Virus record (IMG/VR): IMGVR_UViG_3300042894_006927
Coordinates: 1-64,000 of that record
Direction: 5' to 3' (one strand)
Source: a virus
Length of the DNA: 64,000 nt
The translations under genes were made by a program, and so were the position numbers. Below are positions 42,704-58,251 of the stretch, piece after piece. How positions within the stretch are numbered: the first letter of the stretch is position 1; every line of letters begins with the position of its first letter. The notes beneath the pieces are model-generated. The model saw nothing but the letters and a program-made list of their open reading frames with translations. It had not been told where the DNA came from and did no database searches.

Positions 42704-43093
42704 ATGGCAAAACTACCTCACATTTACTTTCTTGAGCAACTTGATTTGACCGAACAAGACATTCTTTCGGAGTTCAAAAATTATCGTTTAGAAAACGCAA
42801 AAGCCAAAAAGTTTGTAGAATCAAAAGATTTGACAAACGCTTTAAGTGTTTCAAACCGAATTATTGAAAAGGTTATTCCAATGCTTGACGAAGAAGATTT
42901 TTCTGATGAAGAAATTGAAAAAGCCAAGCAAGATGCCCTTTCGCAATTTTCAACAAAACAAAGTTCAAATGGCGAAGCCAATGATAACTCCGAAAATTCT
43001 GATTCAAAAAATGATTTAGGAATTTTGGGTTGGGTTTTGGGCGGTGCTGCCCTACTTGGCGGTGCTTTTTTCTTATTCAAGCGTAAAAAATAA
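42704..43093 (+). CDS. tail-anchored membrane protein
   Basis: C-terminal hydrophobic helix plus KRKK; TATATTTG element just upstream. Confidence 0.7.
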   Translation: MAKLPHIYFLEQLDLTEQDILSEFKNYRLENAKAKKFVESKDLTNALSVSNRIIEKVIPMLDEEDFSDEEIEKAKQDALSQFSTKQSSNGEANDNSENSDSKNDLGILGWVLGGAALLGGAFFLFKRKK

Positions 43094-43668
43094 TGCTCGT
43101 TTGTAATTATAGGAGTTTTGAAGGTCTGCCCCTGCCGAATGTTAGAACAATATCGGGTGGGTTAGGTCGGTATGGACTTGACATAATTACAATGGTGGCA
43201 CGAAATGAAACGGGAACGGCTCAACAAGTTGATTTCTTTTCCCGTAGCAATCCCGCAGGGGTTCGTGTCAGTAACGATGCAATTTCTATGAGTGGGCTTA
43301 TTACCCGTACCCAAGCAAGTCCTCTTGTTATTACAAAAGGGAAATTCTTTGCAAGTGGCGAAAATTCTATTGAGCAACAAAATCAACCTTTGCTGATTTA
43401 CACAAAAACCGCATCGGGGGCTTACGACCAAATTCAAATGAATCCGAGTGCGTACCAATCTTCTCTGCGAACAAGTCAATACCCTATTGACATTCCATTG
43501 AAAGCAATTATTGATAGCCAAAGTAGTTTCTCAACAACCATTTTGCCTAACACTACAATCCGTATAGTGTTAAAGAGTTTCCAACCGCTTAATAAGTCGA
43601 AGGATTTACGGGCATTTCGTGAATTTATGGGAATAAAATGGCAGAAACAAAAGAAATTTGGATTTTAG
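43093..43668 (+). CDS. putative capsid protein 2 (single jelly-roll-like; paralog of 46073-46828)
   Basis: colinear with 46073: (I/Y)T.V..N.T...Q.V; (T/S)Q.SP; Q; A.G...Q....P.A(Y/F).SSL......ID(I/L). Confidence 0.55.
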   Translation: MLVCNYRSFEGLPLPNVRTISGGLGRYGLDIITMVARNETGTAQQVDFFSRSNPAGVRVSNDAISMSGLITRTQASPLVITKGKFFASGENSIEQQNQPLLIYTKTASGAYDQIQMNPSAYQSSLRTSQYPIDIPLKAIIDSQSSFSTTILPNTTIRIVLKSFQPLNKSKDLRAFREFMGIKWQKQKKFGF

Positions 43669-44051
43669 AAACCGCAAAAGCATACGAAGAAAAACTTGCC
43701 ACACGCATCCGCAAGAATACTTCATTGAAAAGCCGTTATCCCAAAATGCTAATTAAAGCAAGGATTGACTTTGTTTTTTTTGTCGTTTCCTTATATTTCG
43801 GGCTTGACAAAAATTGCTTTTATGAAAAGAAACGGCAGGGCGGACTTCCATCAAATTTTTCAGAAATTCGGGGGTTTGCATTTGCATTGCTAAAGCAACG
43901 ATACAACTACTCAAACGAAATGATTTCATTACACACAAAATTTTCACAAAATTGGATTGCAAGGTGCATCTACAAGTTTTCGATTTCGGAAAATTCCGAG
44001 TTTCAAAAATGCGAACTGATTTCAAAACAAATAGCCAATTCTAACTTATGA
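43638..44051 (+). CDS. DnaA domain IV / TrpR-like HTH protein
   Basis: V..YFGL.......KR......R..A..L......S.E.I pattern. Confidence 0.5.
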   Translation: MAETKEIWILETAKAYEEKLATRIRKNTSLKSRYPKMLIKARIDFVFFVVSLYFGLDKNCFYEKKRQGGLPSNFSEIRGFAFALLKQRYNYSNEMISLHTKFSQNWIARCIYKFSISENSEFQKCELISKQIANSNL

Positions 44052-44944
44052 GAGGTCGTAAAAAAATAATTGTTGACAAAGCGGAAGATGCCACAATTCT
44101 TTCAGAACCCGAATTGATGAAGCCAATGGGGGCGACACAATCGCCTTTGCTTGACCCAATTTCTACCGAAGCATCGGGAGAAGGTTCGGGAAAAGCAAAA
44201 ATCCTTCAAAATTTAGGGGGGGCTACTTCTGACGACACCTTTGATGAAAACGATGATAATTTTGAAAGTAACCAACCCGAACCGAAAGTTAGAAGCCAAA
44301 AAAAGCAATCGGCAAGTTTTAATTCTGAAAGCGTAATTTCCGACAATAATTTTCCCGAACCACCCGAATCAAATTTTGATGAACCCGATGAATTTGATGA
44401 AGAATATGAAGAAGGGTCTAACGACCTTCCCGAAGGATATTTAGACAAGGAAATTCCAAAACAAGCGAAATTCATTACCGACCTTGTTACTAATTTGCTT
44501 GAAACATTGATTTTGCAGAAATACGCTATTGATGTTGATAGCGTGAGGACTTCCTTAATGGAAATTTCCGATATGCAACAACAAGTTCCGAATGTAATCA
44601 AAGGTCTTAATGACTACAATATGGGATTTAAAAATGCCATAGAGTTTACCAAAGATGAAAAGAAACTTATTGTTACGGGATTGGTAAACATTCTGAAAAA
44701 ATACCCTGCAATTTCAGACAAACTAACGGGGGAAGCACAATTAGGTTTGGCTATTTTAACGATTGGATTGACTAAATTAGGCGTTTTAAAACAAATGAGA
44801 GATAAGGGAACGGAGATTTTAACCAACATAAATGCCACTTTAAATCAGTATCGTGAATTTTACAAAGCCAAAACCGAACAAATGCGTAATCAACAAGCCC
44901 AAGCAGAGCAAAGCGGAAACGCAAGGGCAGAACAATATGGATAA
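44048..44944 (+). CDS. acidic protein with a hydrophobic helix, upstream of the packaging ATPase
   Basis: disordered acidic N-terminal half, LGLAILTIGL segment, coiled-coil tail. Confidence 0.65.
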   Translation: MRGRKKIIVDKAEDATILSEPELMKPMGATQSPLLDPISTEASGEGSGKAKILQNLGGATSDDTFDENDDNFESNQPEPKVRSQKKQSASFNSESVISDNNFPEPPESNFDEPDEFDEEYEEGSNDLPEGYLDKEIPKQAKFITDLVTNLLETLILQKYAIDVDSVRTSLMEISDMQQQVPNVIKGLNDYNMGFKNAIEFTKDEKKLIVTGLVNILKKYPAISDKLTGEAQLGLAILTIGLTKLGVLKQMRDKGTEILTNINATLNQYREFYKAKTEQMRNQQAQAEQSGNARAEQYG

Positions 44945-44954
44945 TCTTTAGGAA

Positions 44955-45869
44955 ATGGCGATACGGAAAAGCAAACCCACAAATGAGCCGAGTAAAAGGA
45001 AATCGGATAGCCGAAGCAACGGCATATCGGTTATTACGGGTATGCAGGGCGTAGGAAAATCATTTAATCTGAACAGCCGAGTAAGGCAGTACGCCCAATT
45101 TCATAAACGCCCCGTAATTGTCTATGATGTAAACGATGAATATGCTGATTATGAAATTGTGCGTTGGTCTGACATTAAAAACCTAAAAGGCGGTATTGTT
45201 CGCAGAGTATTACCCTATAAGCAGAAGCGTAGCGGGAGTAAGGTAAGGGAAATCAAAGCGTTTGACTTGGAAGATTTAAGAAATGGTTTTTTTTATTTGC
45301 TTGAAAACTTTAAAAACGGGTGTTTAGTATTGGATGATTTTAATTCCTACACTATTTCGACACGAAAGACAAACATCCTTTCTACTCTGACAAGGGCAAG
45401 GCATCACGGGTTGGATATAATTATTGTTTTGCAAGAACTTGGAAAAGTAACCAAAGACCTTTTTGCGAACTCGTCTTATTTCGTAATGCACCGACAAAAT
45501 ACTTCGCTTGACATTGAAAGAAAAAAAATAACAAACTTTCCTTTGTTTAAGATTGCAGAGAACATTGTAAATGCTCAATTTCATTTGGTTGAGAAAATGA
45601 ATGAAATGGGCAAGTTTTCATTGGAAAGCGAATACAAAATGTATCGTAGTTTTTATGTTGAAATTGATGTAAAGCGAAATAAAATCTACGGGTGTACGAG
45701 CAGAGAAATGTTCCGAGAAGCAATTAAGAAATACCTTAAAACTTCGGACAAATACCGAGAGGTTTATGAATTTATGGCTGAAAATGATTTGAGAAAGACG
45801 AACAAAGAGGATTTGGATAGGGCTATAAATGAGGTTTCGGGCAGGTATATGGGCTTTTTTGCAGGTTAA
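44955..45869 (+). CDS. FtsK-HerA superfamily (A32/P9-like) genome-packaging ATPase
   Basis: ITGMQGVGKS Walker A, VIVYD, CLVLDD Walker B, RARHHGLDIIIVLQ (R-finger/H and Q sensor); no nuclease domain. Confidence 0.8.
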   Translation: MAIRKSKPTNEPSKRKSDSRSNGISVITGMQGVGKSFNLNSRVRQYAQFHKRPVIVYDVNDEYADYEIVRWSDIKNLKGGIVRRVLPYKQKRSGSKVREIKAFDLEDLRNGFFYLLENFKNGCLVLDDFNSYTISTRKTNILSTLTRARHHGLDIIIVLQELGKVTKDLFANSSYFVMHRQNTSLDIERKKITNFPLFKIAENIVNAQFHLVEKMNEMGKFSLESEYKMYRSFYVEIDVKRNKIYGCTSREMFREAIKKYLKTSDKYREVYEFMAENDLRKTNKEDLDRAINEVSGRYMGFFAG

Positions 45870-46072
45870 TAATTGGGTTTTTAAGTTATTTATTGTGTAT
45901 TTGCAAGAAACTTAAAATCAGCAAGTTGCAATATGAATGGGAATGTTATATCATTTAAAATTCCTTTTTAATTCTTTTTCTTAATAATTGAAATGTTTAT
46001 TCTACGGAATTGAGTGTAAATTTGACTGATAAATCATTTAAACACTCACTTGCGAGGTAAAACAAATCAATT

Positions 46073-46828
46073 ATGAAAAATCGTATCACTTCTCTTGAAA
46101 ATGCTATGGAACGGAATTTCCGTAACTATGGCGGCTATAATGACTTCTCTATGGGTCAGTATGGCGATGGAACATTCCTTAACGCCAATGGCGGTGGGGC
46201 AGTTCCCGTTTCCCGTTTGAATCCAAACGCACGGCTTTACACTTTGGTAATAACCAATAGTACGGCAAGTACGCAGGATGTTATCATTCTAAACGCAGGG
46301 GATGGCGTACCTCCTACTTCTGCTTCCGTTCCCGCAGGAACATCGGTTACTTTGCAACAAAGTTCTTACAATCGGTTATTGACCGAATCCCAAAACTCTC
46401 CAATGATGGTAGCGGGTTGTAAGGTGTCGGTAAAAGATGCAAGTCAATTCAGTAATGTTTGGACTTTGGCATACCTAAATGCCGCAGGTTTGTTGCAACA
46501 AGCAACTCTTTCGCCTTTGGCGTTCCGTTCTTCTCTGCAAAACTTGGCAACGCAGATTGACCTTTCCGAAGATGATTTCCAATATGTTATCAACCAAGAT
46601 AGCCGTTGGACAATCCCCGTGAATGGCACTTCTTCCGTTTCGGGTGGAGAGAGCATCACGCTGAACTTGTTTGTTAAATCGCAAATCCAACCTACCCGCA
46701 TTTTGCAAGGGCAGAGCAATGTTTCGATTAGCAATCAAGGCGTTCCTTCGGGTTTGCCTACCCAAAAACTTGAAGTGGTGAATCGCACCATTGCGGGGGG
46801 TATGAATGGCGGAATGTCCGTAATGTAA
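46073..46828 (+). CDS. putative major capsid protein (single jelly-roll-like, with N-terminal propeptide)
   Basis: beta-rich, S/T/N/Q-rich 251 aa; follows the ATPase, has its own 200-nt leader and a strong terminator; paralog at 43093. Confidence 0.6.
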   Translation: MKNRITSLENAMERNFRNYGGYNDFSMGQYGDGTFLNANGGGAVPVSRLNPNARLYTLVITNSTASTQDVIILNAGDGVPPTSASVPAGTSVTLQQSSYNRLLTESQNSPMMVAGCKVSVKDASQFSNVWTLAYLNAAGLLQQATLSPLAFRSSLQNLATQIDLSEDDFQYVINQDSRWTIPVNGTSSVSGGESITLNLFVKSQIQPTRILQGQSNVSISNQGVPSGLPTQKLEVVNRTIAGGMNGGMSVM

Positions 46829-46856
46829 ATTGCTCAATGGAGTAATGTCCATAACA

Positions 46857-46893
46857 AAAGGGGGCGGGGTACTTTTGCCCCGCCTTTTTTTTT
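46857..46893 (+). terminator. rho-independent terminator after the putative MCP
   Basis: GGCGGGGT...GCCCCGCC stem followed by T9. Confidence 0.88.
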
Positions 46894-46908
46894 ACTAAAA
46901 AGAATTTT

Positions 46909-47430
46909 ATGCAACCAACATTAGTCGGCACTATTATTCAGCAAAACTTTTCGGGTGTTCAGCAACTTGCTCAAAAAATGGGCTATCCCGTTCCGCAAAC
47001 GCCCCAAGAAGCACAAACTTTTTTCGTAAACCTTCGTGATAACGAAGCACCACAAGATTTTGCCCGATATGTTATGTCGGTTCATCCGAATTGGCAACTC
47101 TTTGGAAAAAACATTTGCAACACTATGTTGCTAAACAATAATTCTCAACCTATGCAATACCGAAACGCTTGTTGCGGGTTTGTAAATGCCGATGGTAGCC
47201 AAAACGGAAATGGCAACGGAAACGGAAACGGAAACGGCAATGGAAACCAAATGCAAAATAACCAACAAACCAACCAACAAATTGAAATCCCGCAAGAATT
47301 TAGGCAGGGATTTGATTTTCTTTCACAAAGAATTGGTGAAATTGCAAGTACCCGAAATCAGAATCAGATTATTCAATACGGACTTGTTTTCGTAGTCGGA
47401 TTGGTAGCGGGAAAGGTATTGTTCAAATAA
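46909..47430 (+). CDS. tail-anchored virion membrane protein
   Basis: FVNADG motif, (NG)n tract, C-terminal TM. Confidence 0.7.
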   Translation: MQPTLVGTIIQQNFSGVQQLAQKMGYPVPQTPQEAQTFFVNLRDNEAPQDFARYVMSVHPNWQLFGKNICNTMLLNNNSQPMQYRNACCGFVNADGSQNGNGNGNGNGNGNGNQMQNNQQTNQQIEIPQEFRQGFDFLSQRIGEIASTRNQNQIIQYGLVFVVGLVAGKVLFK

Positions 47431-47439
47431 AAAAATTTT

Positions 47440-47928
47440 ATGCTTGAATATCGAAATAACAACGGAAAAGTAGGCGGTAAAATACTTGCTGAACAAGTTA
47501 TGTTTAATCGTTCAAAAATGAACGAATTGATGGCTCGTTTTGGCTACAATACCGAAAATTTAAGCGATTATCAACTCGTTTCCCTTATGGGCGATTTGTC
47601 GTTTAAAAACAAGCAATTTGTTCCAACACTTGCAACCTACATAAACACTAATTTTAGGGGTTTTGTGGGGGAAATTGTAGCGGGAATTGGCGGTTTAGTA
47701 ACTGCACTTGATGATGCTTTTAAAACATCAGATGATGAAACTCGGCAAACCCAAGCCCAAGCAGAATTAGAAAGGGCAAAAGCAGATGCCGAACAAGCGA
47801 AAGCAGATTCGGAACGGGCTTCTTCATCCGCAAAAATGTGGACTTATATTGGCGTTTCCGCAGTCGTTGTTATCGGTGTTGTAGCGGGTGTAATTCTTTA
47901 TCGTAGAAGGTCTAAAAAATCGGTGTAA
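47440..47928 (+). CDS. tail-anchored virion membrane protein
   Basis: FRGFVG motif, short coiled coil, C-terminal TM plus RRRSKK. Confidence 0.7.
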   Translation: MLEYRNNNGKVGGKILAEQVMFNRSKMNELMARFGYNTENLSDYQLVSLMGDLSFKNKQFVPTLATYINTNFRGFVGEIVAGIGGLVTALDDAFKTSDDETRQTQAQAELERAKADAEQAKADSERASSSAKMWTYIGVSAVVVIGVVAGVILYRRRSKKSV

Positions 47929-49526
47929 TGGCTATTGACAAAGTTAAATATCCTTTTTCCGCAAAACTTGTGGAAATTATTGGTATGCAAAATGACTTTG
48001 CAAATCCTTGTCAAATTGATTTAACTGCCGATATTGCTTTAGCCAAAAAAGTATTAGAGCAGCCATCGGTAGGACTTGATTGGGGCAAATCTTATTTTTT
48101 GTATAAATTGGGAAGTAATGCAAAAGGAGTTGATACCTTAACGGGCATACAAAAAATAACGATGCCCTCAAAGCCAACGAACAAAACGCCCGACCAAATT
48201 AGTGCCGTTTTAAACGCAATAAAAGTAAATGCAGATGATACTGCGAAAAGGTTTGGAAGCCCCGAACTTTTTGAACTTTTTACTAAAATTTTTTACGATG
48301 AAATAACCAACGAGTGCCGAGAGCATCAAAGAAACCACGAAATTTGGACACCCATTTTAGGTGCGGATTATGTAATTCAATTTACCGACCCGCTTTTAAA
48401 ACAACGAGGGGCAACCATTGAAAGCGTTTCACCTGCAATTCGTGAGCAAATTCGCCCCGTTTTCCTAAACTTTGAAAATTCTCTACGGCACTTAACCGCT
48501 TTAGAAAAAAAGGCGGATTATTTGGAACAAGACATTCAAACATACAATACTTGGATAAGCGAAATTGAAGAATTAACAAGGGATAATTCAAGCGATAAAC
48601 TTTCTTTGGCTTTGCGTAAATATGGTTCAAGTTGTACGCCTATTTTGGCAAGAAGAAATGGCATTTTAGAGCAGGGCAGTATGGAAGCCTACCCAAGATG
48701 GGGGGGCAATAAGAATTGGTCGCAAGGTTGGCATTGTATTTTAGAGAAAGGTATGCCTAAATATAGGGCTACACATCCCGAAGCAGTTGCAGACCCGTTA
48801 GGTCAAGCACAATTTAGGGGCGACCAAATAAACGCTTTAAGCCTTCGTTTAGCGGCTTTTAAGAGTGAAAGAGCAAGGTTTAAAGTATTGCTCAAAAATG
48901 TAATTGATACTGAAATCCCGAACCAAAAAAAGGTTGTTGCGGAAAAGACAAAATTGTGGAATGACCAACAAAAGGTAATTGTAACTTTTTTAAATGGAAT
49001 TGCCGATGCCGCAAGAATAGAGGCAGAAGCCGCAAATCTCCCCGCAATAATTGAAGCCCAAAGACAAGCAAAGATATTAGAAGAAGAAACCAAGCGGCAA
49101 CTTGCTTTAATTGCCGCAAAGGAAGCAAGAGAGAAAAGAACACAATCTTTGCTTATTGGCGGTGGCGTAGCAGCAGTTGGTGTGGCATATTTTAGTACGA
49201 GGGGTGCAGGTGGTGGAAGCCGACTTGGAAACATTGCCGTAGGTGCATTGATGTTAGGCGGTTTAGGGTATGGAATTTATACATATATGAAAGCCCCCAA
49301 AGAAGTTGAGGAATTACCTACTAACGACCAACAAGCAACAATAAGTGCCAACGCTTTAGCGAGTTTGACAAGAAAAAATGCAATGTATTTTGGTAAAGTT
49401 TATGTAAACGAGAAAAGGCAATGTAGTGGCAGAATGACACTTGAACAACAAAGGGCGTGTGAATCCCAATTTACTGCGTTTTCGAGTTTTATGGGTATGC
49501 CAATGGGTTCAACGGGAAATTCTTAA
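47928..49526 (+). CDS. large coiled-coil membrane protein
   Basis: long helical body with two TM segments near the C-terminus. Confidence 0.7.
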   Translation: MAIDKVKYPFSAKLVEIIGMQNDFANPCQIDLTADIALAKKVLEQPSVGLDWGKSYFLYKLGSNAKGVDTLTGIQKITMPSKPTNKTPDQISAVLNAIKVNADDTAKRFGSPELFELFTKIFYDEITNECREHQRNHEIWTPILGADYVIQFTDPLLKQRGATIESVSPAIREQIRPVFLNFENSLRHLTALEKKADYLEQDIQTYNTWISEIEELTRDNSSDKLSLALRKYGSSCTPILARRNGILEQGSMEAYPRWGGNKNWSQGWHCILEKGMPKYRATHPEAVADPLGQAQFRGDQINALSLRLAAFKSERARFKVLLKNVIDTEIPNQKKVVAEKTKLWNDQQKVIVTFLNGIADAARIEAEAANLPAIIEAQRQAKILEEETKRQLALIAAKEAREKRTQSLLIGGGVAAVGVAYFSTRGAGGGSRLGNIAVGALMLGGLGYGIYTYMKAPKEVEELPTNDQQATISANALASLTRKNAMYFGKVYVNEKRQCSGRMTLEQQRACESQFTAFSSFMGMPMGSTGNS

Positions 49527-49539
49527 ATTTGAATAAAAT

Positions 49540-50520: not shown

Positions 50521-50822
50521 TGAGAATAACAAACTATTCCGTTCCAAACGACGAACAAATGCGAGAAATTGAAGGTCGGTATTTTATTCCCCAAGAGATT
50601 GTTGACCAAGTGGCTTATGCGGTTAATAAGGGCAAAGAAATTGTTGAAAATGTAACTACGCCAACAAACGGAAATCAAGGTGGCGGTGCAAACAATGGAA
50701 ATCAGCAGAAAAATGGCGGTACAAACATTGGAAAACCATTGCTTTATACGGGTGGTGCTATTGTTTTAGGACTTGCCGTTTATTTTGGTTACAAGTATTA
50801 CACAAAAACCCTTAAAAAATGA
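50520..50822 (+). CDS. small tail-anchored membrane protein
   Basis: N/G linker plus C-terminal TM and basic tail. Confidence 0.7.
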   Translation: MRITNYSVPNDEQMREIEGRYFIPQEIVDQVAYAVNKGKEIVENVTTPTNGNQGGGANNGNQQKNGGTNIGKPLLYTGGAIVLGLAVYFGYKYYTKTLKK

Positions 50823-50995
50823 GAACATTAGACGACATTGAGCAAAAAAGTGATAAAAAAACATTGTCTGATAAAGTGAAAAATTTACCAACGAGTACAA
50901 AAATTGCGGTTGCCGTAGTTGTTTTAGGCGGTATGTTTTTTGCGTATCGAAAATTCTTTGTAAAAAAAGCAGAACCGAACATTATTGTTGACTAA
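50819..50995 (+). CDS. small membrane protein (58 aa, not in the ORF track)
   Basis: MRTLDDIEQK...IAVAVVVLGGMFFAYRKFF; ATGA and TAATG coupling at the two ends. Confidence 0.7.
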   Translation: MRTLDDIEQKSDKKTLSDKVKNLPTSTKIAVAVVVLGGMFFAYRKFFVKKAEPNIIVD

Positions 50996-51792
50996 TGGAG
51001 AACAAACTGCGGTATAGTTTGAATGTAAATTCGCCCTTTAAGGTGTTTCTTGACTTGCAAGTTAAGAAAGCACCCGTGCGAGTATTTATCCGCATTTTTA
51101 ATCCAAATTTGCCAAATACATTTGCTTATTCACGAAAGCAAGATTTTGAAGTTCCAACATCGTTCAATTACAAAATCGGAGTTCCCGATTTTATTCCCCC
51201 GCTTGTTTTGGAAGTTTATACTGACAAAAATGAACCCGCTTCTGATTATGTAACTGCAAAATTTAGGGTTGAGGAAACGGGAAGCACAATTAAGAGAATC
51301 CCGATGAAGCATAGGAACGCAATTAAATTTCTGCGTGAATTTTCTTTAAAGGCAGGTTTTTTAGAGCCGAACAAAACATATTCAAACGGGAAGATTCAAA
51401 TTAACTATTTGCCCTACATTACTTATGAAAATGGGCAGATGCACACTACCCCCGCAAGGATTCATAAAACGGAAAATTATATTGAGGTAAGCAAGTTCCA
51501 TTTTGATAGGATGCCAACACCCCGAAGAAATGCAATTCTTTTCCACGAATTATCACATAATTTTATTTCCCGAAATCCAAATTCAGAAGAAGAAGCAGAC
51601 GACCATAGTGCCGACCTTTATTCTTTATCGGGGCTTCCGCCAAGCGAGTTCATTTATGGCTTTTCAACCATATTTAGGCAACACAATCCAAAAGAGTTTG
51701 CCAATATGATGAAAGACCCTAACTATCAAAAATTACATTCAATGCAAGTAAACCGATTGCGTAGAATGATTAACAAAATGTCAAACAAATAA
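50995..51792 (+). CDS. zincin metalloprotease, candidate virion maturation protease
   Basis: TPARI...AILFHELSH...EEEAD (HExxH plus downstream Glu ligand). Confidence 0.75.
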   Translation: MENKLRYSLNVNSPFKVFLDLQVKKAPVRVFIRIFNPNLPNTFAYSRKQDFEVPTSFNYKIGVPDFIPPLVLEVYTDKNEPASDYVTAKFRVEETGSTIKRIPMKHRNAIKFLREFSLKAGFLEPNKTYSNGKIQINYLPYITYENGQMHTTPARIHKTENYIEVSKFHFDRMPTPRRNAILFHELSHNFISRNPNSEEEADDHSADLYSLSGLPPSEFIYGFSTIFRQHNPKEFANMMKDPNYQKLHSMQVNRLRRMINKMSNK

Positions 51793-51794
51793 TT

Positions 51795-52502
51795 ATGGGA
51801 TATTTACCATCTTTTAGACCTACTGAAATTTTTGTAACCCCAAGACAAGAGGGGGTTTTTGGAATTTCCCAAGATTCTTTTATGCAGTTTGCACAATCAA
51901 CACAAGTTGGCGGAAGCGGTGGCGTTCAAACACCAAGTCAGCCGAGTAGTGGTGGTGGCGGTGGTGGAAGCGGCATACAAATGGGCGACCAAGTTGGCAT
52001 AAATCCCAATGATAATAGTGGTAGTGTAAATCCGCCCCCGCCAAGCACCCCGCCAACAAACTTTTGTCCTACAACATATTTCCCCGTTTGTGCCAATGGG
52101 CAAACTTTTGGAAATGCTTGTGAAGCAGAAAACGCAGGTTTTACTCAATACACACAAGGAGAGTGTGCCACAAATGGCAATGGCGGTGGCGATAACGGAA
52201 ATGGCGGTGGAAATCAGCCCGTTTATGACCCCGAAACGGGTTGTATTATTCAAGGGTTTGATAATTTAGGCAATCCTATCTACATTGACCAAAACGGGAA
52301 TCCATCTTTAAATCCCGAAGGTTGTCAAATAAGCCCCGATTTTAATAGCGGTGGCGGTGGCGGTGGCGACAACGGGAATGGTGGCGGTGGCGGTGGAACA
52401 ATTCCCGATGATGAAAAAATTATTGCTTTCGTAAAGAAAAATTGGATGTATTTACTTGCCGTAACTGCGGGAATTTATTTACTCACAAATAAATCGAATT
52501 AA
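51795..52502 (+). CDS. Gly-rich membrane protein with a Kazal-like domain
   Basis: CPTTYFPVCANGQTFGNACEA......QGEC; C-terminal TM. Confidence 0.75.
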   Translation: MGYLPSFRPTEIFVTPRQEGVFGISQDSFMQFAQSTQVGGSGGVQTPSQPSSGGGGGGSGIQMGDQVGINPNDNSGSVNPPPPSTPPTNFCPTTYFPVCANGQTFGNACEAENAGFTQYTQGECATNGNGGGDNGNGGGNQPVYDPETGCIIQGFDNLGNPIYIDQNGNPSLNPEGCQISPDFNSGGGGGGDNGNGGGGGGTIPDDEKIIAFVKKNWMYLLAVTAGIYLLTNKSN

Positions 52503-52576
52503 AAAGCAATTAAAAATCAATAATAATTCAAAAAAAAACCTTTACTTTTAATCTCTAACAACAAAAACAAAACGCT

Positions 52577-52786
52577 ATGTTTGAAAATTTGAAAACTGAA
52601 AACTACATTGGTGGAATATCGGGTGGGTTAGTAGCCTACTACGGAATCCGTAAATTTCGCCCAAACACAAATGTTTACCTTCATTGGGGGGCTACTGCTT
52701 TAGCCGTATGGGTCGGTTCAAAGTATGTTGCACCACAAGTTGCCAAACTTTTTCAAGGTGGCGAAGAAGTCGCCCCCGTTGAGTAA
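52577..52786 (+). CDS. small membrane protein
   Basis: two Gly-rich hydrophobic helices. Confidence 0.65.
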   Translation: MFENLKTENYIGGISGGLVAYYGIRKFRPNTNVYLHWGATALAVWVGSKYVAPQVAKLFQGGEEVAPVE

Positions 52787-53001
52787 TGGCAAGACAAGTT
52801 AAAAATACCGAGTATGCGGCAGGTTTGCCGTATGCCCCTAAATATGCGGTTTCGGGAAGGATAGTGGTTGCCAACGGCAATTACACTTCCTTCCGAAACT
52901 TTGCGGAAACGGGGCAAAAAGCGACAAAAATTTCCCTTATTGGGAAAATAGCCGTTGCAGGTATTTTGACATACTTACTTTATCAATTAACAAAAAATTA
53001 G
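52786..53001 (+). CDS. small membrane protein
   Basis: FRNFAE motif then C-terminal TM. Confidence 0.65.
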   Translation: MARQVKNTEYAAGLPYAPKYAVSGRIVVANGNYTSFRNFAETGQKATKISLIGKIAVAGILTYLLYQLTKN

Positions 53002-53006
53002 AAAAA

Positions 53007-53480
53007 ATGGCACGACCAAAAAAAACACAATCATTTGGGGCTGAACTTGCCGCAGGTTTGAAAAAAATTATGGGTGGCGAAAAACAAGCCGAAAAACCAA
53101 AGGCGAAATCCCCCGCAAAGGCAAAATCCCCTGCAAAGGCAAAATCCCCTGCAAAGGCAAAATCCCCTAAAGTATCTTTAAAAGCCAAAGTGAAGCCAAG
53201 AGATTTGAACCGAGTTGAAAAAAAGGGTAAAATCGCTAAATTTTTAAGTGCAAAAGGCACTAAAAAACAAACTGCACGGGGTAAAAAGCAAGACAACAAA
53301 TTCATTGCTCTACCCGCAGGAAAAAGGATTGCAACAAAAGTGGCTACCATTACTAAAGCGGATGGAACTGCATTTACACGCAGAAACCCAAATGCAACCG
53401 AAGGGAAAATTTATTCCGAAAAGCGTAAAAACCGAGCCGATGTATTCGGAAAGGTTGCTCGTATGGGCGGTAGAATGTAA
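53007..53480 (+). CDS. basic histone-H1-like DNA-condensing protein
   Basis: four KAKSP repeats (18-bp unit), very K-rich, ends ARMGGRM. Confidence 0.7.
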   Translation: MARPKKTQSFGAELAAGLKKIMGGEKQAEKPKAKSPAKAKSPAKAKSPAKAKSPKVSLKAKVKPRDLNRVEKKGKIAKFLSAKGTKKQTARGKKQDNKFIALPAGKRIATKVATITKADGTAFTRRNPNATEGKIYSEKRKNRADVFGKVARMGGRM

Positions 53481-53514
53481 TTGTATTAAAAATTAAAAAT
53501 TTAATTTAAGAATT

Positions 53515-54042
53515 ATGAGATTTTCAACAATTTTTAGTAGTCCACAAGGTTGTACTTGCTATGACAACAAAAATAGTCAATGTGCCCCTAATTATTGGTG
53601 CAACGAATGTCGCAAGAATCCAAGTAACCCAAATTGCAATATGCGGGTTGGAAATAGGGTAGTGCCTCGTTACCAAACCCAAAGTGGAAATGGTCAAATT
53701 TATGCTACCCCCACAAATCGCTTCCGAAATGCTATGCCTTTGATGCCAATGGGTATTAACACGGGCGGTTTTGGTATGCCAATGGGCAATAGCGGTAGGG
53801 ATGCCTACCAAAATGCGGTTGGTATGGGAAATCCAACAATGGTTGCCCCTGCTTTTGGAGGAACACAAACGCCAAGTAGCGGTATTAACAACTATTGTAT
53901 TAAATGCTTAAAAAAAGGGTGCGGATGTGTCAGAGATGAAAGAGGTCGCCCACGATGCGACTGCGGAGATTTAACGCCAAGCGGAATACGGCTTAATAAA
54001 TTTTGCAAAAGGCATCCCGAACTTTGTAATGTTCAAATCTAA
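53515..54042 (+). CDS. Cys-rich protein
   Basis: two Cys clusters flanking FRNAMP and YQNAVG motifs. Confidence 0.65.
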   Translation: MRFSTIFSSPQGCTCYDNKNSQCAPNYWCNECRKNPSNPNCNMRVGNRVVPRYQTQSGNGQIYATPTNRFRNAMPLMPMGINTGGFGMPMGNSGRDAYQNAVGMGNPTMVAPAFGGTQTPSSGINNYCIKCLKKGCGCVRDERGRPRCDCGDLTPSGIRLNKFCKRHPELCNVQI

Positions 54043-54055
54043 AAACAATTAAATA

Positions 54056-54286
54056 ATGAAAAACAAAGTTTATGCTTTCGCTAATTTCCGCAATGCGGAA
54101 GGCGAATTATCGGGGCGGCTTCAAATGCCCCAAGCATCCATTGTCGGTACTGCCGTTGGTGCAATCGCAGGACACTTTATTGGCAGAAATGCTAAATCGG
54201 GTATGGCGAAAAAATTAAATGCCTACAATGGGGCTGCTTATGGTCTTTTAATCGGTGCTTTAATCGAAGGGTATCGGTCAGTTTAA
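54056..54286 (+). CDS. small glycine-zipper membrane protein
   Basis: FRNAEG near the N-terminus; GxxxGxxxG helices. Confidence 0.7.
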   Translation: MKNKVYAFANFRNAEGELSGRLQMPQASIVGTAVGAIAGHFIGRNAKSGMAKKLNAYNGAAYGLLIGALIEGYRSV

Positions 54287-54305
54287 TTAAAAAAAAGAAA
54301 AAGAA

Positions 54306-54770
54306 ATGGGAACTATTTTAGGTTTATCCTCTCGTATGGTCAGCATTGACCCGAATGAACCCTCATTCAACGACCAAATAAATGCCACTATTGCTCAAGG
54401 AGTTGATAACAATGCTTCTTATTTTCCTTCGGGGGCAAGACAAGCGTTTGCGGAACAAACTCAAACGAAAATCGGTGCTTTAACAAGCGACATTTTGCCC
54501 GTTGGGGAGTATATGATTCCAAATGCTTATTTGTTAGCCGATGGCGATGTTAATGCCGATGCTAATGCCGATGCGGGTGGAATTGAAGTAGGTGCTTCTT
54601 ATGTTGTACCTTCAACTGCAATGTTGTTAGGCAATGTGCTTGGTGGAATCTTGGCTTATCAAATGACCGCAAACCGCAAAGGGCGTGTTTGGTGGACTAT
54701 TGGTGGAGTAATTGCGGGTGGCATTGCTACCTCTCTTGCTTACAATGTAGGTCGGGGCTTTAGCCGATGA
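54306..54770 (+). CDS. membrane protein with two C-terminal TM helices
   Basis: LLGNVLGGILAY and WWTIGGVIAGGIA. Confidence 0.7.
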   Translation: MGTILGLSSRMVSIDPNEPSFNDQINATIAQGVDNNASYFPSGARQAFAEQTQTKIGALTSDILPVGEYMIPNAYLLADGDVNADANADAGGIEVGASYVVPSTAMLLGNVLGGILAYQMTANRKGRVWWTIGGVIAGGIATSLAYNVGRGFSR

Positions 54771-55189
54771 AAAAAGGCGTAGTGGTTGGAATTGGCTCGG
54801 TTTTGCTTGTCGGAATTGCGATAGGCGGGTATTTTCTATGGAGAAATACTCGCAAATCCGAAACTGATAGCGGAAAAGCCAATGGTGGAGATACGGGTGG
54901 GGGAATTGATGTTACCCCGCCTACTATTCCTTCCAACGAAACTTTACCCCCGCCAACGCAGGGATGCCCAAGTAAATCATATACCCGCCAACGCAATGAT
55001 GCCTTTCCCTTGAAATGGGGTTCAGAAGGTGCAAATGTAGGTAGGTTGCAGAGGGCGTTGAATATGAAATTGGGCTACAATTTAAGTGTTGACAATAAGT
55101 TCGGTTGTTTGACCGAATCTGCCCTTCGCCAAGCGTTAAGAAAAAATGAAATTTCGCAGACCGAATTAGAATCACTTGAAAATCAATGA
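54767..55189 (+). CDS. membrane-anchored peptidoglycan-binding (PG_binding_1-like) protein
   Basis: N-terminal TM; FPLKWGSEG.NV..LQ.ALN....L.VD.KFG..T..A. Confidence 0.8.
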   Translation: MKKGVVVGIGSVLLVGIAIGGYFLWRNTRKSETDSGKANGGDTGGGIDVTPPTIPSNETLPPPTQGCPSKSYTRQRNDAFPLKWGSEGANVGRLQRALNMKLGYNLSVDNKFGCLTESALRQALRKNEISQTELESLENQ

Positions 55190-55581
55190 AAACATCGTCA
55201 ATTTATATTTTAGCGGGAACACTTGCTTTAGGCGGTGTTGCAATTCTTGTTTTGGCGTTGCGTAAACGCCCCGAAGAAACCGAATCCCCTATTGATGTTA
55301 CTCCCCCAACTCAAAATGGCGGTGGCGGTGGCGGTACTCGGCAATTTTCGTGTATGTACGGAAACGAATTTCCTTTGCAGTTTGGCTCTTGCGGTTCAAA
55401 TGTCGAAAAATGGCAAACATATTTGAACTCCAAAAGGGGCGAAAATTTAGCCGTTGATGGAAAGTTTGGTGCTTTAACCGAATCCGCTACAAAACGGCAT
55501 CCCGCCTTTGGAAATTTATCTACTTTCAATCAAGGAAAAGTAAGCGAGGTTGATTTCAATATGGCGACTTTTCAAGGTTAA
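55186..55581 (+). CDS. membrane-anchored peptidoglycan-binding protein
   Basis: N-terminal TM; FPLQFGSCGSNV..WQ.YLN....LAVDGKFG..T..A. Confidence 0.8.
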   Translation: MKTSSIYILAGTLALGGVAILVLALRKRPEETESPIDVTPPTQNGGGGGGTRQFSCMYGNEFPLQFGSCGSNVEKWQTYLNSKRGENLAVDGKFGALTESATKRHPAFGNLSTFNQGKVSEVDFNMATFQG

Positions 55582-55597
55582 TGCAATCTAAAATGAA

Positions 55598-56008
55598 ATG
55601 GCAAAAGCATCGTTTCTACCCAAAAAAAATGATTTACCCGATGTTTGGGTAAATTGGTTTGATAACCTTCAAGGAGAGGTAGGGATAAATAATGCCCGAT
55701 TTCTTTGGACTAAATGGTGGAACGAAATTAAGCCAACTTCAAGCAACACAATAAACCTTCGCAATCAAATGGAAGCGAGGGGAATTGTAATTGAACCCGA
55801 ATCTGCTTTAGGAAAAATCGGTGATATTGGCTCTGATGTGTTTTCGGGCATTGGAACTGCCTTTCGTGGCGTTGGAACGCTAATTACTATTTCGGTGGTT
55901 GGCGGGATTGCTATTATTGGACTTGTTCTTTACAATTTCACAAAAGATGAAAGTGGTCGTGCTGAACTGAAAAATTTAGCATCAAAAATTGCAACAAAAG
56001 GGATGTAA
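55598..56008 (+). CDS. membrane protein
   Basis: Trp-rich N-terminus, C-terminal TM. Confidence 0.65.
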   Translation: MAKASFLPKKNDLPDVWVNWFDNLQGEVGINNARFLWTKWWNEIKPTSSNTINLRNQMEARGIVIEPESALGKIGDIGSDVFSGIGTAFRGVGTLITISVVGGIAIIGLVLYNFTKDESGRAELKNLASKIATKGM

Positions 56009-56009
56009 A

Positions 56010-56486
56010 ATGAACAAAAAGCAACTCATTTTTATTGGTGCAACTGCGACTGCGATTGGGTTTTTCTTTATTGGAAGAAGCATTTATCGAAAAATTCGGC
56101 TTGAAGATATTTTGAAGCAGATGCAAACGGCATCAACGGGTGATATTTCTACGGATTTAGGATTAGTTTTTAGCGGTCAGCCATACCTTAACCAACTTGC
56201 AGGGAAAACATTGATTTTATTGCAGGATTCGGTTGCGAGAAAATATGCAAATGACTTGAAAGGATATATTTGCCAAACCTATGTTTGTAACACAAACGAG
56301 GGTGGAATTTATGGGGTGTTTCAGCGTATTTCAAATAAAGCCCAAGTAGCCCAAGTTTCAAAGTGGTACAAAGCGTTATTCGGAAGGGATTTACTTGCTG
56401 ATTTAAACGCTGATTTAAACGATACGGAATTAGAAAAGGTAAGAACAATAATTGCTTCAAAACCCGATTACGAAATTGCACAATGA
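56010..56486 (+). CDS. membrane-anchored protein with an annexin-like repeat
   Basis: N-terminal TM; TNEGGIYGVF....NKAQ..QV...Y...FGRDL..DL resembles the annexin repeat consensus. Confidence 0.55.
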   Translation: MNKKQLIFIGATATAIGFFFIGRSIYRKIRLEDILKQMQTASTGDISTDLGLVFSGQPYLNQLAGKTLILLQDSVARKYANDLKGYICQTYVCNTNEGGIYGVFQRISNKAQVAQVSKWYKALFGRDLLADLNADLNDTELEKVRTIIASKPDYEIAQ

Positions 56487-57007
56487 ATAGAAAATTAGCA
56501 ATAGGATTAGCCGTTGGTGGCGGTACTATAATTGTTGTAGGACTTGCTACCTATTTTGGCGTTAAACTTGCTTCAAAGCCCGAAAATCAACAAGGCGGTG
56601 GCGGTGGTGAAAATGGCGGTGGAACAAGACCCCCAAGCGAAGATGAATCCGTGCCACAAACGGGAACACAAGAGGCAAAAATGTCTTTTCCCCTTGCGAT
56701 TGGTGATAGGGGCGTAGGCGTTGCTTACCTTCAAAAATCCCTGCAATGTTTAGGCAAGTATTCGGGAAGCATTGATGGAAAATTCGGTATTGAAACATAC
56801 AAGGCGATTAGAAGTTATTTTACTTTCCAATGGTTTAATTGTACTTTTCATTACGAGTGCAAATTGTCTGAAAAACAATGGAAGGAAATTGTCCAACAAG
56901 CAAGGCAAAAATGTGGGTTGGCAACTTTCTCTTTACCCGATTCAATTTGGGAAGAATATACCCAAGCCCATACTGATTTTTGGAACAAAAAACGCCAAGA
57001 AAAATGA
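56483..57007 (+). CDS. membrane-anchored peptidoglycan-binding protein
   Basis: N-terminal TM; FPLAIGDRG.GV..LQ..L..LG.....IDGKFG.ET..AIR.F. Confidence 0.8.
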   Translation: MNRKLAIGLAVGGGTIIVVGLATYFGVKLASKPENQQGGGGGENGGGTRPPSEDESVPQTGTQEAKMSFPLAIGDRGVGVAYLQKSLQCLGKYSGSIDGKFGIETYKAIRSYFTFQWFNCTFHYECKLSEKQWKEIVQQARQKCGLATFSLPDSIWEEYTQAHTDFWNKKRQEK

Positions 57008-57465
57008 TTAAGCGTGGGTGGATAATTGGTGGCGTAATTGCGGGAATTTTAGCCGTTCCAATTACCTATTTTTTGGTTCAGTACAAAAAGTTAATGGACT
57101 ACGAAATTAACCCCGACACAATTACCCGAATTTCAAAAGAAGGCAGAAGGTACAAGTATAGGGTTGTTTTTAATTTTGAAAACAAATCTTCGCTTGGTTA
57201 TACGATTGAGCAACAAAGTTATGAGGTGTTTTTAGGTAATTTGAAAATCGGTGAAGGAAGTTACAAAGAGAATGTGGAAATAAAGCCAAAATCAGTAAGC
57301 AAATTGCCTATGGTTATGGAGTTTGTTTTACCTACAAACGCCCAAGCAATAGGTTATTTGCTTGAATTGTTTTCAAGCGGAAAAGTTTTGATAAATGTAA
57401 AATGGCAAGTATCTTTAATGGGCTTAAAAACGAACATTGAAAAACAAATGGAGTTTAAAATCTAA
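57004..57465 (+). CDS. membrane-anchored LEA_2/WHy-like beta-sandwich protein
   Basis: N-terminal TM; F.FEN......TI....Y.V.L....IG.G......I.P. Confidence 0.6.
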   Translation: MIKRGWIIGGVIAGILAVPITYFLVQYKKLMDYEINPDTITRISKEGRRYKYRVVFNFENKSSLGYTIEQQSYEVFLGNLKIGEGSYKENVEIKPKSVSKLPMVMEFVLPTNAQAIGYLLELFSSGKVLINVKWQVSLMGLKTNIEKQMEFKI

Positions 57466-57468
57466 ATT

Positions 57469-57963
57469 ATGTCGAAAAATTCAAAAATCTTATTGGCGGT
57501 AATTGTTTCGGGAATTATTGGCTTTTTTGTTGGGAAAAAAAGTAAGCAATCAAACTTTTCTAACTTTGAAAAAGGCGGTGGAATGTTTCCTTGCCCCGAA
57601 CCGACAAAAAATTTGGAATTAAATACCCGTAACCGAAACAAGGCAATTAAAGCAGATTGGATTCAATATGGGCCTTTAAACCTTTCAGATTCAGCGTATT
57701 ACAATCGACTTGCAAAGCATTGGAATACGAGTGTTGGGGTTGCAAAAAAATCTAATTGCGGAAATTGTGCTGCTTTTGATGTTTCCCCAAGAATGAAAGG
57801 TTGTATGTCAGTAGGCGAATTGCAAGATAAAGATGGTGCTTTTGGATATTGTTGGATGCACAAATTTAAGTGCCATTCTGCCCGTACTTGTTACACTTGG
57901 GCGAAGGGCGGTGCAATTACAACTGACAAAGTATCTTATGGTTGGCAAGAAAGAAATCAATAA
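57469..57963 (+). CDS. membrane-anchored Cys-rich (HiPIP-like spacing) protein
   Basis: N-terminal TM, FSNFEKGG, then CGNCAAF...GYC....FKC....TC..W. Confidence 0.65.
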   Translation: MSKNSKILLAVIVSGIIGFFVGKKSKQSNFSNFEKGGGMFPCPEPTKNLELNTRNRNKAIKADWIQYGPLNLSDSAYYNRLAKHWNTSVGVAKKSNCGNCAAFDVSPRMKGCMSVGELQDKDGAFGYCWMHKFKCHSARTCYTWAKGGAITTDKVSYGWQERNQ

Positions 57964-57999
57964 AAATCAATTTAAAAATCAATTTTAAAATCAAATCCT

Positions 58000-58251
58000 A
58001 TGGAAAACAAGGAACTTATCAATTACGGGGGTGGAATTGTTGGTGGCATTTTAGGAAATGTTATCAATGACCGATTCACCAAATTTGGAATGGCAGGGCG
58101 ACTTGGACTAATTGCCGTTGGTGTTTTTGGCGGTTATTTTTTAACCAAAACTTTGCAGGACAAAGGTGGTTTTAGAAATGCCGATGGCGGTTGCGGTTGC
58201 GGTTGCGGTGGAAAATGTGGTGGCGGTTGCGGTTGCGGTTGTGATGATTAA
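58000..58251 (+). CDS. small membrane protein with a (Cys-Gly)n tail
   Basis: two TMs, FRNADG, then GCGCGCGGKCGGGCGCGCDD. Confidence 0.7.
   Translation: MENKELINYGGGIVGGILGNVINDRFTKFGMAGRLGLIAVGVFGGYFLTKTLQDKGGFRNADGGCGCGCGGKCGGGCGCGCDD

Follow-up and report, generated by a model that had tools for sequence, protein, structure and literature searches.

A six-residue peptide motif, aromatic-x-Asn-Ala-x-Gly, is a real punctuation mark between the modules of structural proteins in an undescribed viral lineage, standing between leader and body, between soluble part and membrane anchor, and between domain and domain. The virus is uncultured and large, and is apparently a tailless, membrane-containing virus of bacteria; it is represented by a 79.8-kb contig, its genome spans 80 kb or more, and no sequence match to the lineage was found among 50,697 deposited phage genomes and records. 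The window analysed here is the first 64,000 nucleotides of this contig. It contains a gene block in which two coat-like proteins, one small (191 amino acids) and one large (251 amino acids), surround a Zot/FtsK-like ATPase, and its structural module, in which the motif is concentrated, is rich in small membrane proteins. Among the genes of this virus are some for polyvalent proteins (ART-PolyVal, LPD23 and a Sno-type helicase).

The first-pass annotation of this sequence had described the motif as [FY]x[NSGE][AFY]xG and had listed ten full matches and five near-matches. All 15 translate as listed, in the frames of genes on the + strand, and two full matches had been missed: YLNAAG (46472–46489) and FLSAKG (53241), the latter of which looks like a chance match. 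The pattern as written lumps together two kinds of site. Its core signal, which is robust, is [FY]-x-N-A-x-G (A-type), with the consensus F-R-N-A-D/E-G; the other half, [FY]xx[FY]xG (F-type), gives a weaker signal, and distant homologues do not keep its Gly at the FRNYGG, FREFMG and YRSFEG sites. Codons differ from site to site, so the signal lies at the protein level and is not a DNA motif. As had been suggested, it is also distinct in spacing and residues from the GG code, [MFY]xxGG, which is concentrated in the upstream polyvalent proteins.

Enrichment of the motif in 43–58 kb relative to 1–41 kb was borne out. The original pattern has 12 matches in the 4,888 amino acids encoded at 43093–58251, compared with 1.5 expected from within-protein shuffles (0 of 5,000 shuffles reach 12), whereas the upstream genes are at background, with 4 matches in 14,005 amino acids versus 4.0 expected. 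The last 15.8 kb of the contig contains one match, and a Fisher test of the module against the remaining genome gives P = 5.6 × 10−6. The non-coding frames of the same DNA contain 5 matches in about 25,000 codons. The core [FY]xNAxG occurs 6 times versus 0.18 expected (0 of 5,000 shuffles) and is absent elsewhere in the genome. By type, the module has 7 A-type sites against none in the remainder of the window (P = 4 × 10−5), and 5 F-type sites against 4 (P = 0.04; 3 of 3,000 shuffles); FRN[AFY] occurs 5 times in the module versus 1. The motif was defined post hoc, from the same data. When every 4-of-6 pattern is scanned without bias in a reduced alphabet, F.NA.G ranks first, with an equally extreme pattern in 5.5% of shuffled proteomes, which is borderline, and a BLOSUM-seeded scan of this genome gave no significance. 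We therefore place the weight of the argument mainly on conservation among homologues and not on counts in a single genome.

In four protein families, the Asn, Ala and Gly of the motif are 71–100% conserved, compared with 27–50% for the flanking linker, confirming that the motif persists while its flanks diverge. This pattern holds in the families of 46073, 53515 and 46909 (named by gene start) down to 23–47% overall identity, Asn is the best-conserved residue, and purifying selection is acting on all three positions. The sites sit in arms and linkers that are predicted to be disordered; as originally reported, they tend to be close to a terminus or to separate one part of a protein from the next. 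In structure models, they fall in low-pLDDT segments between foldable modules. Only three carriers (43093, 47440 and 54056) have the motif within their first 16 residues, and it is internal or C-terminal in the others, so that its placement departs from a T4-type signal at the extreme N terminus of cargo. Most membrane-anchored proteins of the module have no copy. The carriers had been called otherwise unrelated, which is accurate at the level of BLAST except for coat-like proteins 1 and 2, which are paralogues (E = 2 × 10−5).

Coat-like protein 2 (46073–46828) carries both types of site. The core of its structure model (residues 53–204) is a beta sandwich, the best structural matches of which are jelly-roll capsid proteins, and these matches are weak (Foldseek E = 9.5 × 10−4; VIA match, Z = 6.7, r.m.s.d. 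of 3.3 over 109 residues). Its N-terminal arm, with pLDDT < 50 at residues 12–52, contains FRNYGG (46118–46135) and, in the disordered part, the A-type site FLNANG (46175–46192), with about 15 residues between it and the jelly-roll-like core. In FRNYGG, all of 15 homologues of down to 44% identity keep R17 and N18, with [YF] next, and 93% keep F16; both Gly residues vary, and distant homologues read FRNYYD or FRNFWD. The FLNANG site retains N in 87%, A in 73% and G in 73% of homologues, compared with 27–40% for its flanks; distant subgroups read YSNANG or FVNANG, and the P0007–P0010 subgroup has lost the site (FVNQVS). YLNAAG lies inside the core, between strands 130–135 and 141–146 of the model, where the paralogue has TASG; Y134 and G139 are invariant and N136 and A137 are 93% conserved, and judging from the model this copy is probably a structural beta-hairpin turn rather than a signal. 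The F-type sites of coat-like protein 1 (43093–43668) are YRSFEG (43108–43125), at residues 6–11 and followed by LPLP, and FREFMG (43615–43632), 11 residues ahead of the basic C terminus. YRSFEG is kept in L002 and L005. In P0038, a 45%-identical homologue, it is replaced by WNYFDW, with MPLP kept and the Gly gone, and FREFMG becomes FRNFMA, in which F-R-x-F-M is retained and Gly is changed to Ala.

Some of the membrane proteins carry the motif close to an anchor or a tail. A double site, YRNACC-G-FVNADG (47158–47196), occupies the linker of the C-terminally anchored protein 46909–47430 and is followed by an (NG)7 repeat; homologues with 23–30% identity read YKNASG and xNATG, plus an extra MRNASG or MRNATD, and N and A of the double site are 71–86% conserved in the family versus 29–43% for the flanks. 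Distant members have NATG followed by GCGCG repeats, an arrangement like that of FRNADG (58171–58188), which separates the membrane part of 58000–58251 from its (GC)n tail. Membrane protein 47440–47928 has the near-match YRNNNG (47449–47466) at residues 4–9 and the F-type site FRGFVG (47653–47670) directly ahead of its first hydrophobic segment; the counterparts in L002, L003 and L005 read YQNNNG or YQNNSG for the former, and the latter is unchanged in all three. The F-type site FSSFMG (49479–49496), followed by MPMG, lies 9 residues from the C terminus of 47928–49526, and its counterpart in L002 and L005 is FTGFSG followed by LPLG or LPMG. The near-match FRNFAE (52891–52908), 8 residues ahead of the C-terminal anchor of 52786–53001, is identical in L002 even though the flank differs. 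Another near-match, FSNFEK (57556–57573), lies just past the N-terminal anchor of 57469–57963 and overlaps a GG-type site, FEKGG.

Module swapping is clearest in the family of the Cys-rich protein 53515–54042. Its linker contains the near-match FRNAMP (53722–53739), followed by LMPMG, in which F70, R71 and N72 are 95% and A73 is 90% conserved among 20 homologues. YQNAVG (53806–53823) marks a module junction and contributes N100, A101 and G103, three of the six invariant columns in the family; what comes after the Gly of YQNA[VN]G differs among homologues, with at least five unrelated modules represented. In four homologues (L002 17561–18484, P0018, P0022 and P0027), an inserted domain of about 125 amino acids is bracketed by copies of the motif, YQNANG at one end and FNSAVG or YQNAVG at the other, and when the same domain is placed C-terminally no motif follows it. 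The small membrane protein 54056–54286 has FRNAEG (54086–54103) at residues 11–16, and its leader (KIYAFANFRNAEGEL) also heads the protein P0035, a fusion joined at FRNA that attaches a 54056-like leader to a 53515-type protein and contains several Cys-rich modules with the separators FRNAEG, YQNAVG, FNNAIG and FHNAVSG. Around FRNA, the leader of 53515 resembles that of 54056 over a short stretch. A passive linker would have no need of an invariant sequence.

The first-pass annotation had proposed a second maturation code, read either by cleavage or by docking. The punctuation is real and restricted to the module, and nothing in the present data separates the two modes. We lean tentatively, and with less than even confidence, towards the motif being the site that a maturation protease encoded by the virus recognizes and cuts, with a zincin as the candidate. 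The only candidate enzyme seen, as protease or reader, is a soluble HELSH zincin (50995–51792, + strand) encoded inside the run of membrane-protein genes. It has no hydrophobic segment, and its identity of 94–95% to the L002 and L005 counterparts places its gene among the most conserved in the module; its Pfam matches (PhageMetallopep, E = 0.003; SprT-like, E = 0.038) are below curated cut-offs, a search of solved structures (PDB) found no relative, and its nearest atlas clusters are viral and unnamed. The putative enzyme would read and cut the motif and trim leaders and tails of both coat-like proteins with their jelly-roll-like cores; as the particle is assembled, it would also split apart or set free the modules of the small membrane and Cys-rich proteins. 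That all copies have a single reader, that the reader is a protease and that the protease is the zincin are inferences, the last from gene position only. Cleavage is the most likely of the readings considered; in its favour are the enrichment confined to 43–58 kb, the protein-level nature of the signal, the conservation of Asn, Ala and Gly, the junctions in the 53515 family, the position in low-pLDDT segments, and the zincin gene within the module of a genome that also encodes polyvalent proteins. Several observations count against it: cutting at sites 3–10 residues from the N terminus (47440, 43093 and 54056) would free little, one subgroup of coat homologues has no A-type site in the N-terminal arm, the F-type Gly is not kept, the zincin falls below Pfam thresholds and the unbiased single-genome statistics are borderline.

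A docking signal, too, would be expected to be conserved and to lie in flexible segments. The main rival, which we consider unlikely, is that the motif serves docking or assembly without cleavage, the peptide fitting a pocket on a common partner such as the base of a jelly-roll capsomer; coat arms and membrane proteins would share a single contact (‘arm mimicry’) that would bring the internal membrane and minor proteins into register with the shell. Retention of the motif in disordered segments, its presence both on terminal arms of the two coat-like proteins and on anchor-adjacent tethers, the invariance of the FRN[YF] that closes the N-terminal helix of coat-like protein 2, and sites so close to N termini that they suit handles better than cut sites are all consistent with this. 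However, multi-module proteins have a copy between every pair of modules and none after the last, which suits separators better than an address label; furthermore, most membrane proteins of the module are without the motif, and the partner is hypothetical. It is quite improbable, in our view, that the motif has no common reader and reflects a favoured turn sequence, linker cassettes spread by recombination and a post hoc definition. The borderline or negative unbiased tests, the plain beta-turn of YLNAAG, the heterogeneity of F-type sites and the similarity between the 53515 and 54056 leaders, suggestive of cassette duplication, point in that direction, but a generic turn would be expected elsewhere too and the core motif occurs 0 times in the other roughly 20,000 amino acids; invariance of Asn, Ala and Gly within drifting linkers of four families requires selection, and an insert bracketed by two copies is unexpected by chance.

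The prominence of the Asn raises the prospect of modification at this residue, for example at an unconventional sequon used by virus glycosyltransferases or in an Asn–Lys cross-link, with neither cutting nor docking. In its favour, the linkers that hold the sites are exposed, three genes for family-2 glycosyltransferases are present in the genome, and the most distant 46909 homologues read NAS or NAT, which conforms to N-x-S/T. By contrast, the window and nearer relatives read NAD, NAE, NAN or NAV, and the glycosyltransferase genes are 25–30 kb from the module, amid replication and modification genes, with nothing that ties them to it. We know of no family-2 transferase that glycosylates Asn, and we regard modification as very improbable.

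If the motif is a cleavage site, 54056, 53515 and the arms of both coat-like proteins are the candidate substrates for the zincin as candidate enzyme; if it is a docking handle only, it would even so mark where membrane proteins are brought into register with the shell. In either case, a conserved six-residue signal on coat-like and membrane proteins offers a testable handle on particle assembly, and module swaps at the motif suggest a route by which new virion proteins arise. Codes for maturation by proteolysis have been described in tailed phages and in jelly-roll viruses of eukaryotes (adenovirus, ASFV and poxviruses); to our knowledge, none is known for prokaryotic tailless viruses with an internal membrane. 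A more far-reaching and rather doubtful proposal is that particle maturation in this lineage proceeds by proteolysis at two kinds of related site, read by the zincin or self-cut at Asn-Ala, in convergence with adenovirus, ASFV and poxvirus, and that the motif is also a universal joint. Packaged polyvalent cargo would carry the sites of the form hydrophobic-x-x-Gly-Gly, coat and membrane proteins those of the form aromatic-x-Asn-Ala-x-Gly, and the joint would be where virion proteins gain, lose and swap modules.

Among described viruses, Sphaerolipoviridae, Simuloviridae and viruses like Thermus phage P23-77 have an internal membrane, two single-jelly-roll coat proteins and a packaging ATPase (PMC5332951, PMC12643093, PMC12642351). 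The coat-like pair around an ATPase, the many small membrane proteins and the jelly-roll-like core of the model resemble these families; unlike their genomes of 16–31 kb, this one is at least 80 kb, and the fold matches are weak (best Z of 6.7). We know of no maturation protease or shared peptide code in these families. In phage T4, which is tailed and has an HK97-fold capsid, the prohead protease gp21, a serine protease of the assemblin clan, cuts L/I-x-E sites, and internal proteins have an N-terminal capsid-targeting sequence. As with gp21, one short site recurs on the major capsid protein and on numerous unrelated proteins that are internal or minor, and the 54056 leader recalls the T4 leader of about ten residues that ends at the site; the motif itself differs, and many sites here are internal or C-terminal and adjoin membrane anchors. 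The coats of nodaviruses (Asn-Ala) and tetraviruses (Asn-Phe), RNA viruses of animals, cleave themselves as asparagine peptide lyases and release membrane-active peptides, at one site in one protein and only in the assembled capsid. Here too, an invariant Asn is followed by Ala, or by Phe or Tyr, in flexible parts of jelly-roll-like coats. The Asn-Ala of every A-type site, together with the Asn-Phe or Asn-Tyr of FRNF and FRNY, is compatible with an asparagine peptide lyase at the level of sequence only; in contrast to those viruses, the motif is linear and common to many proteins.

Multi-substrate cleavage at a consensus is an established scheme of virion maturation in adenovirus, whose protease (AVP) cuts (M/I/L)XGG-X and (M/I/L)XGX-G sites in pIIIa, pVI, pVII, pVIII, pMu, pTP and L1 52/55k (PMC4246237). 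The parallels are a short consensus of hydrophobic anchor and Gly on many unrelated virion proteins, close to termini or separating parts, a capsid that is here putatively of jelly-roll type, and two site forms, here [MFY]xxGG and [FY]xNAxG. The motif departs from the adenain site pattern (hydrophobic P4, Gly at P2 and Gly at P1 or P1′): its anchor is aromatic and one position further off, Asn-Ala is obligatory and Ala stands where adenain sites have Gly. The candidate enzyme here is a zincin, and a Pfam scan of about 60 of the proteins encoded ahead of the last 15.8 kb, with only part of the small proteins among them, found no match to a clan-CE cysteine protease. Unlike the uncut adenovirus hexon, the coat-like proteins carry the motif, at which cleavage is putative. 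Finally, processing by zincin-like metallopeptidases has been proposed for polyvalent proteins of phages and conjugative elements, with no sequence code given (PMC5512222). The motif is absent from the polyvalent proteins of this virus, which carry GG-type sites, and its zincin is a separate small protein and not an embedded domain; as in those systems, however, polyvalent proteins and a zincin with a weak phage-metallopeptidase match occur in the same genome, and the behaviour of the 53515 family fits that of multi-module polypeptides that need to be separated.

The full record is linear and 79.8 kb long, and the window covers its first 64 kb, in which closely spaced genes lie on the + strand. 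The structural gene region at 43–58 kb encodes about twenty small proteins, the majority with one hydrophobic anchor, as well as a Zot/FtsK-like P-loop ATPase (44955–45869) and two paralogous coat-like proteins (BLASTP E = 2e-5), referred to here as coat-like protein 1 (43093–43668, 191 aa) and coat-like protein 2 (46073–46828, 251 aa). The AlphaFold model of coat-like protein 2 has a confident beta-sandwich core (residues 53–204) and disordered ends (12–52 and 204–251), and its best structural matches are weak ones to jelly-roll capsid proteins (Foldseek E = 9.5e-4, VIA Z = 6.7). The very basic protein at 53007–53480 carries tandem AKSPAK-type repeats and may be a DNA-condensing core protein; in its relative in a metagenome locus (L002, 16983–17534) the repeats differ in copy number and in unit sequence (ATPKAK or AMPKAK). 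A bacterial host is indicated by the genes for a DnaG-type primase and a UvrD helicase, and by the peptidoglycan-binding domains.

The first-pass annotation had listed a motif shared by capsid and membrane proteins of this region, [FY]x[NSGE][AFY]xG, and had read it as a second maturation code, either a protease site or a docking signal. Every instance and near-match that it listed was recovered at its position, together with 2 further full matches (YLNAAG at 46472 and FLSAKG at 53241). The motif is more common at 43–58 kb than in the rest of the genome (Fisher p = 5.6e-6), with 12 matches observed against 1.5 expected, a count reached in 0 of 5,000 shuffles. The 48 upstream genes hold 4 matches (4.0 expected), the final 15.8 kb of the record holds 1, and the non-coding frames of the region hold 5 in about 25,000 codons. 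The A-type core, [FY]xNAxG, occurs 6 times at 43–58 kb (0.18 expected) and 0 times elsewhere in the genome. A-type sites number 7 in the region against 0 in the remaining window, compared with 5 against 4 for the F-type, [FY]xx[FY]xG (p = 0.04), and 5 against 1 for FRN[AFY]. The core motif is also absent from the large polyvalent proteins (ART-PolyVal, GNAT, Sno-type helicase and LPD23) at 19963–41316, which instead contain about 25 [MFY]-x-x-G-G sites (for example, FEQGG, YAEGG, MQMGG and FAKGG), the ‘GG code’ of the earlier annotation. No copy of the motif was found in the three paralogous proteins that have a membrane anchor at the N-terminus together with a stalk rich in Gly and Pro and a peptidoglycan-binding domain (54767–55189, 55186–55581 and 56483–57007).

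Because the motif had been tailored after inspection of the data, we also ran unbiased scans of all patterns with four fixed positions and a span of 4–6. Using a reduced alphabet, F.NA.G was the top-ranked pattern (5 proteins, p = 3e-6), but an equally extreme pattern arises in 5.5% of shuffled proteomes, and a BLOSUM-seeded motif search gave no significance. The counts from this single genome are therefore suggestive rather than conclusive. Codon choice changes from one motif site to the next; the signal is therefore carried by the protein rather than the DNA, and a DNA-level motif or recombination site was ruled out on these grounds. A signal peptidase I site, considered for the small residues at −3/−1 in NAxG, was likewise ruled out, given that there is no suitably spaced hydrophobic region and that Phe occupies −3 in F-type sites.

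Four carriers yielded homologues, the proteins at 57469–57963 and 58000–58251 not being among them, and conservation amid diverging flanks holds for the A-type core in three of the four. In coat-like protein 2 (15 sequences, to 44% identity), the N-arm site [FY]xNA[NV]G retains N in 87%, A in 73% and G in 73% of sequences, compared with 27–40% in its flanks, and is present in most subgroups and missing from one. A YxNAxG at residues 134–139, which the model places in a hairpin turn within the core, is nearly invariant. FRN[YF] of the same protein keeps R and N in every sequence and F in 93%, whereas the Gly residues that follow are not conserved. One distant relative, L008, carries this gene in two tandem copies (2–670 and 935–1681), both with the N-arm YSNANG. 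The Cys-rich protein at 53515–54042 (20 sequences) has just 6 invariant columns, and 3 of them are the N, A and G of its YQNA[VN]G site; FRNA is 90–95% conserved. The C-terminally anchored protein at 46909–47430 (7 sequences, to 23% identity) retains both of its sites, as [FY]xNA.. and xNA[DT]G, and distant members have an additional MRNASG or MRNATD; a classical N-x-S/T sequon was set aside, as it occurs only in the most distant of these homologues. In coat-like protein 1, a comparison with one 45% homologue shows FREFMG replaced by FRNFMA and YRSFEG by WNYFDW, and F-type sites therefore retain aromatics and lose Gly. We conclude from these alignments that the robust element is [FY]-x-N-A-x-G, overlapping F-R-N-[AFY], and that the F-type fringe is weak; the pattern as first drawn is broader and takes in weaker or different elements as well.

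Among the different elements, G-[LM]-P-[LM]-[GP] forms a tail behind aromatic-x-Gly three times, at the N-terminus of coat-like protein 1 (43123–43137), the C-terminus of the protein at 47928–49526 (49494–49508) and the linker of the Cys-rich protein (53773–53787); these are its sole occurrences in the window, all within the structural module. Other short elements also adjoin motif copies. An (Asn-Gly)7 repeat (47203–47247) lies directly 3′ of FVNADG in the C-terminally anchored protein and differs in length among close relatives (L003 and L002). The small membrane protein at 58000–58251 ends in a (Gly-Cys)n tail (58189–58248) directly past FRNADG, an arrangement shared by distant homologues of the C-terminally anchored protein (NATG followed by GCGCG repeats); such tails could possibly serve in metal binding, disulfide linking or acylation. 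A paralogy between this small membrane protein and protein 52577, which would align a GG-type with an A-type site, had no significance (E = 21).

The family of the Cys-rich protein suggests how the motif behaves. Its homology extends as far as the final residue of YQNA[VN]G, after which at least 5 unrelated continuations follow. A domain of about 125 aa, modelled with low confidence as alpha/beta, sits as an insert immediately past this site in L002 (17561–18484, 307 aa) and three metagenomic homologues (P0018, P0022 and P0027), bracketed by motif copies (YQNANG ... FNSAVG or YQNAVG); where the domain is C-terminal, no motif comes after it. At this junction other homologues carry either another insert, unrelated to the first, or alternative C-terminal modules, and no further copy of the inserted modules was found in the window or the metagenome loci. 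In the low-confidence model of the 307-aa protein, the three motif copies (pLDDT 21–40) lie between modules at 1–42, 117–213 and 257–300. The homologue P0035 is a natural fusion, in which the 16-residue leader of the small membrane protein at 54056–54286 (KIYAFANFRNAEGEL), a neighbouring gene of the Cys-rich protein in the window, passes at FRNA into the central part of the Cys-rich family; FNNAIG and FHNAVSG separate the additional Cys-rich modules that come next. The motif thus appears to act as a separator between modules.

These comparisons draw on relatives found solely in metagenome assemblies: 7 loci, L002 to L005 coming from freshwater samples and the distant ones being 1–2.7 kb, with distant relatives compared as single proteins or contigs of 1–3 kb. 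The coat-like protein and ATPase had no match among 50,697 phage records (tblastn) or in 185,579 species genomes, and IMG/VR searches with the coat protein, its alignment and the alignments of the Cys-rich protein and the ATPase returned no relatives. The lineage therefore appears to be undescribed.

The invariance of the motif in an otherwise drifting linker implies that something reads it, and we consider it improbable that the sites have no common reader. Our tentative first choice is a maturation-protease site, because it would explain the separators that stand between every pair of modules, the sites towards either end of the coat-like proteins, the sites between soluble parts and membrane anchors, and a highly conserved zincin. 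The candidate enzyme is this zincin, a soluble HELSH protein encoded centrally in the block of genes (50995–51792) and 94–95% identical in L002 and L005. The adjoining gene (51795–52502) encodes a membrane-anchored protein that contains extended stretches of Gly and a weak Kazal-like Cys domain (Pfam E = 0.009). For the class to which this genome’s polyvalent proteins belong, processing by zincins has been suggested (PMC5512222), and cleavage of multiple substrates at a consensus is established in adenovirus (PMC4246237).

Against a protease site, cleavage is only predicted, the zincin’s Pfam matches (PhageMetallopep and SprT-like) are weak and sub-threshold, a search of the PDB with its sequence found no match, and some motif sites lie merely 3–10 residues from the N-terminus. 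The main rival, a docking handle that is not cleaved, strikes us as possible but rather doubtful. Modification of the invariant Asn, at which three family-2 glycosyltransferases encoded elsewhere in the genome (13533–14255, 16511–17278 and 19298–19933) hint, seems very unlikely; several methyltransferase-like genes accompany the glycosyltransferase genes, all upstream of the polyvalent proteins. Also among the alternatives are the self-cleaving coat proteins of nodaviruses and tetraviruses, whose scissile bonds, Asn-Ala and Asn-Phe, are matched by the same dipeptides at the motif sites, a likeness that we offer purely as a lead.
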